From NCBI GenBank assembly GCA_003144275.1, contig NJBF01000010.1, positions 30,001 through 62,000 of the forward strand: 32,000 nt of DNA, given 5' to 3'. Position 1 is the stretch's first letter. Each line of letters opens with the position of its first letter. Shown here one piece after another: positions 3,268-32,000 of this stretch. Below the pieces are notes generated by a model. That model had not been told where the DNA came from and made no database searches. It saw only the letters and a program-made list of their open reading frames with translations. Source of the DNA: Candidatus Heimdallarchaeota archaeon B3_Heim (GTDB lineage: Archaea; Asgardarchaeota; Heimdallarchaeia; Hodarchaeales; Hodarchaeaceae). The translations under genes were made by a program, and so were the position numbers.

Positions 3268-3466
3268 TTCTCTTACATTACAATACAGTCATTTAGAAAT
3301 AATTTTATGCTTAAAAAGGTGTAAAACATTCTCCTATTCTCTCTGAATACTCTTCTGGTAACATTTAGAGGAGCACTATAGTAAGTCTTAAGAAGAACTC
3401 CTTGTTTACCTAGCTTAAGATATTTAACTGAAAGAAGATACTCATTTCAGATAAGCTAGATGAGAG

Positions 3467-4147
3467 TTGAAAATACAAGTGAAACGACTTAAAGGGTTTT
3501 TAACGGGATCGAAACCATCTTCATCAACTGAAACAAAAGCGAAGTTAAAAAGAACCATAAATCAAATGGAAATAAAGGTAAAAAACTATTCAAGGCAATC
3601 TGATGAGCAATATGAGTTAGCACGTCGACTGTTAAAATCTGGGAACAAACCTGGAGCTCAACAAGCTCTGAAGCGACGTGAGCTATATTTGACCCAGACA
3701 ACGAACACTCATAGCAAGATAGCAAACTTACAACGTATCATTGAAACGCTTGATATTTCTGCAGATAACGTTACTTTAACAGAGACACTAGCGCAGGCAC
3801 AAATTGCAATTGATAGCAATGTTGAAGCAGCTTCGCCTGAAAGGACAGAAGAAGTAATGATGTCCTTAGAGGATTCCATAGAAATGGTTTCAGATATGGA
3901 GGACTCTCTTACAGATACCTCGATAACTGAAATCGGAATGGATGTTGAAGCAGATGATCGAATATCTATGCAAATGGCGGAATTAGAAGCGGAATTATCA
4001 TCGGGTTCTCTTCCAGCAAGTGAAACAAGTGTTTCTGCAACACCTAGTTCCCCAATATCAGAAAACACCGCTGGAAAAAAACGTGAAGCAGACAAAAAGA
4101 AATTAGATGAGATGCGGAAACAGATTGAAGAAGGTTTGAGGTCATAA
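3467..4147 (+). CDS. ESCRT-III protein, Vps20/32/60 (Snf7) type
   Basis: LLKSGNKPGAQQALKRRELYLTQ...NLQRIIETLD is the Snf7-type core; basic N-half, acidic C-half. Start is TTG 3467 or GTG 3479. Confidence 0.9.
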   Translation: MKIQVKRLKGFLTGSKPSSSTETKAKLKRTINQMEIKVKNYSRQSDEQYELARRLLKSGNKPGAQQALKRRELYLTQTTNTHSKIANLQRIIETLDISADNVTLTETLAQAQIAIDSNVEAASPERTEEVMMSLEDSIEMVSDMEDSLTDTSITEIGMDVEADDRISMQMAELEAELSSGSLPASETSVSATPSSPISENTAGKKREADKKKLDEMRKQIEEGLRS

Positions 4148-30759: not shown

Positions 30760-32000
30760 ATGTCTTTAGTTTACATGAAAGTATTGGAGAAAGATCCAAA
30801 GACATACGATTGGGAGTTTAAAAAGAGATTCCCTGAAGTTGAACATATTTATGAGTTGATAAAGACCAGAATTGGGGAACAGGGACGTGTTCTTGAAATT
30901 GGGAGTGGAACAGGACGATTAGCGATTGATATAGCTAAACAGGGGTTAGAAGTAACTGCAATTGATGTTTCTGAAGAGATGATCAACCATGCAAGAATAA
31001 CTGCGGGAAAAGAGAATATAGACTTGGAGTTCATCATTGGTAACTTCCTTGCTCTTCCTATATTCGAACAACTTCAAGAATCTGGATCATTTGATTTCAT
31101 TATCTCCACATTTGCTTTATCTGAAATGTCTCCTCTTCAACAAACATTATTCCTGAAACAAATATCCCTTTTACTAAAACAGGAAGGAATTTGCTTTCTG
31201 GTTACCGATACCGCCCCTAGTTCAGGAATATCCAAGATAGGTTTTTCGATTAGAAATTTTATTCGTGCGCAAGTTTCGATTTTTAAGGACATCCCCTCCA
31301 CAAACCCTGTAAAGAAAGTAGAGACTAAAATCGATCCCTTTTTTGAAAGTACACTTCAATTTCAAAAGAAAACAATCAAGTTATTCGAAATCACTAAGAA
31401 AGTTGAAGACTCAGCCATATCTGAAGAGCTTCCATCCGTTAAAGCTATTTTAGGATCATATTCACAATTAAAAACTGCTTATTGTATCGTCAATGGAATA
31501 TTGACAAGAAAGAGCGTACCTCCTGGCTTATATCGGATTGGGAATCCACGAAGAAATTCACCAGTTCTGGTAACTGCAAATTACTATTGGACGGTAGATT
31601 CTGTATTTAAACTTCTTCACAAGGAGACTATTGATTGCTTTCTATTAATAGTAGATTCAAATGGAATAAATGTGTGGTGTGCTGCAGGGGGAGGCCATTT
31701 TACACATACACAAATATTAGACGCAATTAGGTTATTTGATGTCAAAGAAATGATTGATCATTCTACCATAATATTACCTCAATTATCAGCAACAGGAGTA
31801 GATCGAAAGGAATTGTCTAAAGCAGGTTGGAAACCAGTTTTTGGCCCCGTAGATATCAAAAATGTTAATACATTTCTAGAATCATTCACAAAAAAATCTA
31901 AAACAGCGATGGTTGAGTTTAACTTAGCATTTAGAACTCTAATGGGAATACAACATGCGTTCTTTATTAGTTGTGTTCTTTTCCTCCCTTTGTTACTGAT
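30760..32000 (+). CDS. Class I SAM methyltransferase fused to an HgcA-like (CdhD-family) corrinoid-binding domain; runs off the window end
   Basis: Translated by hand with no stop from ATG 30760: MSLVYMKVLE..., VLEIGSGTG, FDFIISTFALSEM, then PGLYRIGNP...SPVLVTANYYWT...GINVWCAAGGG...LPQLSATGV...FGPVD, then a hydrophobic segment. Absent from the supplied ORF track. Confidence 0.88.
   Translation, partial: MSLVYMKVLEKDPKTYDWEFKKRFPEVEHIYELIKTRIGEQGRVLEIGSGTGRLAIDIAKQGLEVTAIDVSEEMINHARITAGKENIDLEFIIGNFLALPIFEQLQESGSFDFIISTFALSEMSPLQQTLFLKQISLLLKQEGICFLVTDTAPSSGISKIGFSIRNFIRAQVSIFKDIPSTNPVKKVETKIDPFFESTLQFQKKTIKLFEITKKVEDSAISEELPSVKAILGSYSQLKTAYCIVNGILTRKSVPPGLYRIGNPRRNSPVLVTANYYWTVDSVFKLLHKETIDCFLLIVDSNGINVWCAAGGGHFTHTQILDAIRLFDVKEMIDHSTIILPQLSATGVDRKELSKAGWKPVFGPVDIKNVNTFLESFTKKSKTAMVEFNLAFRTLMGIQHAFFISCVLFLPLLL

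Follow-up and report, generated by a model that had tools for sequence, protein, structure and literature searches.

A gene joining a CpaM-type methyltransferase to an HgcA-like corrinoid protein in a Heimdallarchaeota genome: a putative cobamide-dependent methyl-relay enzyme

The stretch of DNA analysed here comprises 32,000 nucleotides of the genome of Candidatus Heimdallarchaeota archaeon B3_Heim (contig NJBF01000010.1, G000:C10:30001-62000 in our numbering) and is hereafter called the window. At its 3' end it carries a gene in which a class I S-adenosylmethionine (SAM) methyltransferase of the corrinoid protein-associated type (CpaM) is joined in one reading frame to an HgcA-like corrinoid protein with transmembrane (TM) helices, and a gene for an HgcB-like ferredoxin follows directly behind it. 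The link to a CpaM-type methyltransferase was found to be nearly obligatory in the lineage to which the protein belongs, the sister lineage of the mercury methylase pair HgcAB. In our view the protein is probably an enzyme of the CpaM/HgcAB-like system that is anchored in the membrane and depends on a cobamide; it would relay a methyl group from SAM to a Co(I)-corrinoid and on to an acceptor, with the HgcB-like protein supplying the electrons.

The fusion gene and its two-gene cassette

The frame runs on the plus strand from its ATG through the window end over 413 codons and was listed only as '3open', i.e., as 3'-open, which explains its absence from the track of open reading frames (ORFs). 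The original prediction, made from the letters of the window, had claimed an uninterrupted frame of at least 413 codons missed by that track, and this was confirmed. The contig extends further, and with the downstream DNA fetched, the full ORF was found to encode 554 amino acids (aa), with its stop at 'window' coordinate 32424, which is contig position C10:62424 (L002:761-2425 in our locus numbering). The protein (P0002) consists of three parts, namely a CpaM-type class I SAM methyltransferase, an HgcA-like corrinoid domain, and five TM helices at aa 389-420, 426-454, 460-482, 488-512, and 518-545 according to the AlphaFold2 (AF2) model and hydropathy. The portion that lies in the window is laid out in Table 1.

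Table 1. Features of the fusion gene within the window (window coordinates)
Feature	Coordinates	Strand	Basis or remark
CpaM::HgcA-like fusion gene, 5' part, 1241 nt (413/554 codons)	30760..32000	+	NCBIfam/Pfam matches, AF2 model
CpaM-type class I SAM methyltransferase domain, aa 1 to about 215	30760..31404	+	NF043040, Methyltransf_25, Foldseek
SAM-binding motif I VLEIGSGTG, aa 44-52	30889..30915	+	G48, G50, G52 invariant
Post-I acidic residue D69, invariant	30964-30966	+	
Linker and N-terminal HgcA segment, aa 216-251, between methyltransferase and corrinoid domain	31405..31512	+	AF2 secondary structure
HgcA-like corrinoid domain	31513..31899	+	Pfam CdhD positions 267-386; PDB 2h9a, 4c1n, 4djd; top Foldseek 9a0b_A
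Cap-helix motif NVWCAAGG, aa 304-311	31669..31692	+	Gly311 where canonical HgcA has Lys
Cys307, predicted cobalt ligand, codon TGT	31678-31680	+	
Transmembrane domain start, TM1 from aa 389	31924..32000	+	Hydropathy, AF2; TM helices mostly past window end

Among the Pfam families, class I SAM methyltransferases (Methyltransf_25/31/11) matched aa 23-154, with Methyltransf_25 at 1.9e-17, and CdhD matched aa 252-372 at 3.3e-16, the latter through the C-terminal third of the family, just the last 120 positions of PF03599. In NCBIfam, CpaM (NF043040, 'corrinoid protein-associated methyltransferase') was by far the best methyltransferase family (121.5 bits, 3.3e-35, aa 2-191), with profile positions 1-191 aligned from residue 2 and the N-terminal CpaM signature MKxLExxPxxY present. 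The HgcAB_like fusion protein family (NF043039) was the top family for the region behind it (214.3 bits, 3.5e-63, aa 252-517), and HgcA (NF040863) matched aa 252-546 at 3.5e-50. Matches of this strength go far beyond chance. The class I SAM methyltransferase domain seen in the original prediction is thereby matched by Methyltransf_25 and CpaM, and the 'corrinoid-protein-associated' label that the prediction had named for stand-alone methyltransferases starting MSxVYMKVLE is the name of the domain's best methyltransferase family. In addition to the motifs of Table 1, PGLYRIGNP was located at aa 255-263, SPVLVTANY at aa 267-275, LPQLSATGV at aa 339-347, and FGPV at aa 361-364; all the motifs quoted in the prediction, the cap helix included, lie where it had placed them, and the membrane region of which it had seen the start is the set of TM helices found downstream.

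The AF2 model, built from 54 fused homologues, was confident throughout (pLDDT 88.9, pTM 0.84), and the pTM value hints at a defined inter-domain arrangement in the modelled protein. A complex prediction with the methyltransferase (aa 1-225) and the corrinoid and TM region (aa 246-554) as separate chains gave a score of 0.25 against a mark of 0.32. When the model was compared with the PDB by Foldseek, the best match of the C-terminal two-thirds was the integrative HgcAB model 9a0b, and the N-terminal third matched class I SAM methyltransferases; a sequence search of the PDB returned no experimentally solved HgcA, the nearest solved chains being CFeSP (corrinoid iron-sulfur protein) large subunits (2h9a, 4c1n, and 4djd). 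The residues invariant in the 54 fused homologues include G48, G50, G52, and D69 of the SAM-binding site, M6, L9, E10, and P13 of the CpaM signature, and N304, W306, C307, and A309 of the cap helix.

The fused or adjacent HgcB for which the original prediction had proposed to look downstream is present as a separate gene. A 91-aa ORF for an HgcB-like 2x[4Fe-4S] ferredoxin starts 3 nt past the stop codon of the fusion gene, carries two CX2CX2CX3CP motifs, GCGC, and a C-terminal KQCC, and has HgcB (NF040864) as its best family, at 66 bits, below the cut-off of 99. A 2x[4Fe-4S] ferredoxin with a Cys at or near the C-terminus lies directly 3' on the same strand in all 20 related loci inspected, and a CC pair falls within its last 25 residues in 17 of them. 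The two cassette genes are the only genes conserved across all 19 related Asgard loci, and the remaining neighbours are shared with the three closest relatives only.

A word-index search returned dozens of full-length homologues with both Pfam signatures, including independent metagenomic clusters, and their carriers are Promethearchaeota, Hodarchaeales, Heimdall-, Odin-, Hermod-, and Thorarchaeota and also Anaerolineae. An exhaustive search of representatives gave 62 clusters at E <= 1e-30, about 25 of which are full-length fusions. The homologues are labelled merely 'methyltransferase domain-containing protein' in the NCBI sources, and the earlier description of the fusion as unannotated therefore holds for the ORF track, which missed it, but not for the public databases, where many homologues are annotated under that label. 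The source genome is a metagenome-type assembly of 103 contigs, which might raise the suspicion that two genes were joined by a frameshift, that the contig is chimeric, or that the gene is a pseudogene. Such an artefact has next to no probability and is effectively refuted, since the methyltransferase and the HgcA-like part share one stop-free frame in at least 70 of 301 sampled genomes of the window's phylum and in the dozens of independent metagenomic clusters, since an independent public run yielded a contig that crosses the linker between the domains (L002 1329-1598) with no indels, and since the fold is confident throughout. Neither a stop nor a frameshift was thus found between the domains, and the survey across Asgard genomes that the original prediction had recommended showed the single-frame form to be recurrent.

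Placement beside canonical HgcA and linkage to CpaM

The trees were calculated from the corrinoid and TM region and rooted on five Asgard CdhE C-terminal domains, with 156 rows by a quick method and 73 rows by a careful method. All HgcA-like proteins formed one clade (100/100) apart from the CdhE outgroup. Within this clade, canonical stand-alone HgcA formed a sub-clade (100/99) without any methyltransferase-linked member, and every methyltransferase-linked form was found in its sister group (support 92 in the large tree and 93/93 in the careful tree), which also includes the 'fused HgcAB-like' proteins. P0002 falls within an Asgard clade (100/98) of proteins with the methyltransferase fused to the HgcA-like part, denoted MT-A below, with B for the HgcB-like ferredoxin. 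The MT-A label requires at least two origins, on the starred branches of the tree, so the fusion arose more than once. As a side observation, two Asgard genomes (L029 of G006 and L028 of G038) each encode a CdhE-type CFeSP large subunit of 589-592 aa with two tandem copies of the C-terminal corrinoid-binding domain, at about aa 340-472 and 465-586.

Judged from its sequence, the fusion protein lies inside the HgcA superfamily and is neither canonical HgcA nor CdhD/CdhE. The CdhE-rooted trees thus bear out the HgcA-like corrinoid domain of the original prediction, and its caution that Hg methylation cannot be assumed was well founded, as the protein is placed outside the canonical HgcA clade. 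The features by which the related families are recognized gave the same picture. The protein has the CFeSP-type corrinoid domain, the five TM helices, and the adjoining hgcB with a C-terminal Cys pair of canonical HgcA (NF040863; the high-stringency hgcA of Hg-MATE), but not its cap helix N(V/I)WC(A/S)(A/G/S)GK, a score above the cut-off of its hidden Markov model (HMM), or a place in its clade. It groups with the fused HgcAB-like proteins of NF043039 and has their CpaM partner, here fused at the N-terminus, but does not hold the HgcA-like part and the ferredoxin in one chain, P0002 having no Fer4 domain. With CpaM it shares the class I fold with intact SAM motifs, the N-terminal signature, and the linkage, here covalent, to an HgcA-like protein. 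The TIM-barrel and N-terminal Fe-S architecture of CdhD/CdhE (AcsC/AcsD) and an acs/cdh operon context were not found.

Under the community protocol, a cap helix must end in K to count as high-stringency hgcA, and fused forms are to be treated with caution (PMC10087281). NVWCAAGG is not among its six accepted hgcA motifs, although the Cys (Cys307) is present. Among the retrieved homologues, NVWCAAGK is typical of stand-alone HgcA and NVWCAAGG of the methyltransferase-fused and ferredoxin-fused proteins, and NVWCAARG is the cap helix of a second Asgard methyltransferase-fused clade. The Lys-to-Gly change on which the original prediction had remarked is indeed present but does not set this gene apart: to judge from these motifs, most of the CpaM-linked clade beside HgcA has it. 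The rule that a non-K cap helix goes with CpaM is not strict, and exceptions were observed. P0045 (529 aa, from a 2.2-kb contig of a JGI metagenome) is the sole methyltransferase-fused protein seen with NVWCAAGK; it branches off alone and on a long branch, close to where the methyltransferase-linked group begins, and may represent an intermediate form. P0110 and P0120, at the base of the canonical clade, have the G-type motif, a separate HgcB, and no methyltransferase neighbour.

The three modules were found in four arrangements: as three separate genes, as a methyltransferase gene beside a fused A-B gene, as a fused MT-A gene beside a ferredoxin gene, and as a triple fusion MT-A-B. The three-gene form of Asgard archaea consists of a methyltransferase of about 220 aa, an HgcA-like protein of about 322 aa (NVWCSAAG or NVWCGSRG), and a ferredoxin of about 72 aa; Asgard genomes also hold methyltransferase genes beside A-B genes and triple fusions of 601-655 aa, and P0049 (634 aa), which scores above both the CpaM and the HgcAB-like cut-offs, is a triple fusion. 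In bacteria, the genes for two ferredoxin-fused HgcAB-like proteins (379 bits on NF043039) are each immediately preceded by a 212-aa gene that scores 258-270 bits on CpaM, for which the cut-off is 180. The two loci have the boundary coordinate 4001 in common, and at one of them (L024) the methyltransferase gene (3366-4004) overlaps the HgcAB-like gene there. An ArsR/SmtB regulator lies further upstream in both, and MerC downstream in one: at L024, the regulator gene is at L024:2092-2472, and a gene for a MerC-family mercury transporter (L024:5208-5639) overlaps the 3' end of the fused gene.

A census covered two sets of named genome loci, 80 in each, drawn from a wide range of bacterial and archaeal phyla, with a bias to archaea in the second; as the relatives are not independent, its counts are a description of clades and have no statistical standing. 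Within the first set, the CpaM-type methyltransferase was fused (5) or abutting upstream (52) at 57 of the 62 non-K loci with enough upstream sequence, in comparison to none of the 16 NVWCAAGK loci, all 16 of which have a separate downstream HgcB. In the second sample, an abutting methyltransferase was found at 75 of 78 ferredoxin-fused loci with a non-K cap helix. Among these are a metagenome-assembled genome (MAG) of Methanococcoides sp. and a Thermococcaceae MAG, both with the CpaM-linked, non-K form. Nothing besides the three modules recurred in the 80 named loci, save a minority with ArsR or TetR regulators.

Genomes of the same genus as the window's hold up to three paralogous cassettes, namely MT-A with a separate ferredoxin and NVWCAAGG, a second clade of this arrangement with NVWCAARG, and the three-gene form with NVWCSAAG and a 72-aa ferredoxin. 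Two cassettes each were seen in G181, G136, G256, G250, and G102, and one in the window's genome. The presence of several cassette paralogues per genome suggests different substrates.

A putative methyl relay and its alternatives

In the proposed relay, the HgcB-like ferredoxin would reduce the corrinoid ligated by Cys307 to Co(I), the tethered CpaM domain would bind SAM and methylate Co(I) to CH3-Co(III), and the methyl group would then be passed to an acceptor at the membrane face. Our leading guess for this acceptor is a thiophilic metal or metalloid handled by the C-terminal Cys pair of the ferredoxin, a thiophilic substrate being proposed because the ferredoxin has this Cys tail. We infer the relay from the architecture, the conserved cassette, the catalytic residues, the clade-wide linkage in several permutations, and the SAM chemistry of HgcAB, the purified form of which has its cobalamin methylated by SAM by way of a Co-thiolate-ligated methylcob(III)alamin intermediate (PMC11588087). 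The original prediction had likewise joined a methyl donor module and a corrinoid carrier, and its reading is supported: every structural prediction in it held, the relay itself staying a proposal. Within the genome, the cassette holds the sole PF03599 domain, no CFeSP of the Wood-Ljungdahl pathway being detected, and the sole CpaM-type domain, the next-best methyltransferase reaching 66 bits. Seven other B12-binding-domain proteins are above the Pfam cut-off, and the cofactor is plausible.

Several points weigh against the relay. The NCBIfam scores are the best of their kind yet under the curated cut-offs, with 121.5 to 124 bits against 180 for CpaM, 214.3 against 285 for the HgcAB-like family, and 171 against 275 for HgcA, which indicates that the Asgard clade is divergent; by these scores the CpaM domain of the fusion is a divergent subfamily. 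Neither CobS nor CbiB turned up in the genome, which is 94% complete, so that the cobamide would have to be imported, and the organism may be dependent on imported cobamides. The flanking genes, which code for DUF4037, a malate/lactate dehydrogenase, an arginase-family enzyme, Tag glycosylase, a 178-aa ORF, a VOC-family protein, a DNA methylase, and an MFS transporter, gave no functional hint, and no conserved neighbour points to the acceptor. To our knowledge, there is no biochemistry for any CpaM or HgcAB-like protein, and we know of no class I SAM methyltransferase that methylates a protein-bound corrinoid. Finally, canonical HgcAB uses SAM without a class I methyltransferase domain (PMC11588087), and such a domain may therefore not be needed for the loading of the corrinoid.

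Two ORFs near the cassette are recorded here as side observations. The 178-aa ORF just 3' of the HgcB-like gene (L002:2780-3316, C10:62779-63315) had no Pfam or NCBIfam match and is kept only in the three closest relatives, and a 1865-aa ORF lies at L002:11476-17073, about 9 kb downstream of the cassette.

One alternative is that the protein is a working mercury methylase with built-in SAM loading, which would make these Asgard archaea producers of methylmercury (MeHg) in marine sediments. The protein has the HgcA hallmarks except the terminal Lys, i.e., the corrinoid domain, the cap-helix Cys, the five TM helices, and the adjoining HgcB with CC, and SAM is the methyl donor of HgcAB (PMC11588087). 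However, it lies outside the 100/99 canonical clade and well short of the HgcA model, and no MeHg above controls was obtained from Pyrococcus furiosus and Methanococcoides methylutens, two cultured carriers of fused hgcAB-like genes (PMC4646819, PMC5893877), the Methanococcoides MAG of our census having the CpaM-linked, non-K form. Podar et al. noted that P. furiosus cultures without MeHg are no proof that the fused protein is unable to catalyse the reaction (PMC4646819). Mercury is thus a possible acceptor but a disfavoured one because of the clade placement and the negative culture tests of relatives, and we regard a mercury methylase as unlikely.

A further alternative accepts the SAM chemistry and assigns it another purpose, in that the methyltransferase domain would be a MetH-like repair module that re-methylates oxidised Co(II) with an electron from HgcB, the methyl group for turnover coming from a methylated pterin or a substrate. 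It is established knowledge, discussed in PMC11588087, that cobalamin methyltransferases generally need reductive activation, and the strict co-occurrence of the ferredoxin fits a reductive-methylation couple. We nevertheless consider a repair role distinctly unlikely: no gene for a TIM-barrel-type methyl donor is conserved beside the cassette, the genome has no other PF03599 protein, and a one-to-one fusion with at least two origins that is kept across phyla goes beyond what one would normally expect of a factor needed only for occasional repair.

With regard to the acceptor, arsenic or another metalloid would make the cassette a cobamide-dependent alternative to ArsM. ArsR/SmtB-type regulators do stand beside some bacterial cassettes, ArsR matches being found in 11 of the 80 named loci (9 of these among the 63 non-K loci), and one bacterial cassette has MerC downstream; among the 80 named loci, MerC was seen in one. 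ArsR neighbours are a minority, and the surroundings of the present locus, to about 9 kb upstream and 6 kb downstream, hold no ars gene. Moreover, the genome has a conventional arsenic module on another contig, unlinked to the cassette, in which the gene for an ArsM-like 384-aa methyltransferase with a C-terminal ArsR/SmtB helix-turn-helix (HTH) domain (L063:1324-2478; 226 bits, cut-off 263) is followed, about 3 kb downstream, by a tandem pair of genes for ArsA ATPases (G000:C84, about 30150-35870). An acceptor of this kind in particular is therefore very unlikely.

Lastly, the corrinoid could serve Co(I) chemistry without methyl transfer, such as the reductive dehalogenation of halomethanes, with the methyltransferase domain kept for some other purpose. 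A 2026 preprint describes the dechlorination of CCl4 by heterologously expressed HgcAB (10.64898/2026.04.26.720869), but it deals with canonical HgcAB, and this explanation leaves unaccounted for a SAM methyltransferase with invariant SAM motifs that is fused or abutting in nearly all members of the clade. We consider it highly improbable.

Relation to known systems

The methyl source of the HgcA corrinoid was settled, as SAM, only in 2024. The present results add that the whole sister lineage of HgcA has a dedicated class I SAM methyltransferase, separate, abutting, or fused, and that canonical hgcAB loci are without it. At the genomic level, this CpaM linkage lends independent support to SAM-to-cobalt methyl loading in the HgcA-type family. 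Full-text literature searches, with subscription-only papers outside their scope, found no paper on the CpaM-HgcAB-like link: the word 'methyltransferase' is absent from Podar 2015 (PMC4646819), and in Lin 2023 and Zheng 2024 it denotes HgcA or other cobalamin enzymes and no partner methyltransferase. Lin et al. assigned sequences of Thor- and Lokiarchaeota to the fused-hgcAB subtree and dropped the alignment's first 327 positions as poorly aligned (PMC10083202). Among the sources covered, the link to a methyltransferase is seen only in the NCBIfam family names. The system itself is of a known kind, catalogued but unstudied, and what is new here is the arrangement of its domains.

On a broader view, it is conceivable, and we put it forward tentatively, that the trio of CpaM, HgcA-like, and HgcB-like proteins is a widespread and ancient SAM-driven cobamide methylation machine for a non-mercury substrate, and that the mercury methylase is a derived offshoot that shed the methyltransferase and then gained the cap-helix Lys. 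This would agree with the absence of a methyltransferase from all 16 canonical loci and with P0110 and P0120, which are basal in the canonical clade, still have the Gly, and have no methyltransferase neighbour. If it were true, the Asgard fusion would be a natural single-chain version of the machine, suited to the study of HgcA-type corrinoid loading and of the ancestral substrate. In practical terms, the CpaM linkage together with the non-K cap helix offers a simple marker for separating probable non-methylators from true hgcA in metagenome surveys, and the cassette, with just two genes, is compact and lends itself to biochemical study. Asgard archaea of marine sediments commonly carry the system, with up to three cassettes per genus, and its substrate may matter for metal and metalloid cycling in sediments.

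Among the known systems, the pair of CpaM and HgcAB-like proteins (NF043040 and NF043039; the 'fused HgcAB' of Podar 2015, Gilmour 2018, Capo 2022, and Lin 2023) shares all three modules with the present cassette, as well as the position in the sister clade and the non-K cap helix. The difference is that the fusion point is shifted here, with the methyltransferase on the HgcA-like part and a separate ferredoxin that retains the HgcB-type C-terminal CC, and that the fusion protein stays under both family cut-offs and has its own 100/98 Asgard clade. The cassette resembles canonical HgcA and HgcB (NF040863 and NF040864) in the corrinoid domain, the cap-helix Cys, and the five TM helices, in the adjoining ferredoxin whose tail bears a Cys pair, and in a methyl group that probably comes from SAM; canonical HgcA, in contrast, has no methyltransferase domain or neighbour (0 of 16) and a cap helix that ends in Lys, and the fusion protein is outside its clade and under its cut-off.

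The CFeSP large subunit of the Wood-Ljungdahl pathway (AcsC/CdhE) has a homologous Rossmann-like corrinoid-binding domain (2h9a, 4c1n, and 4djd). Unlike this subunit, the fusion protein is without the N-terminal [4Fe-4S] and TIM-barrel parts and without the Cys-less cap helix, is membrane-anchored, and is set apart by the 100/100 branch. In the way it would work, the fusion protein may also be compared with MetH, in which one chain tethers a SAM-binding and a cobalamin-binding module and an external donor supplies electrons of low potential. MetH differs in its unrelated SAM fold, in its His-on Rossmann B12 domain as opposed to the Cys-on CFeSP type, in being soluble, and in its use of SAM for reactivation only.

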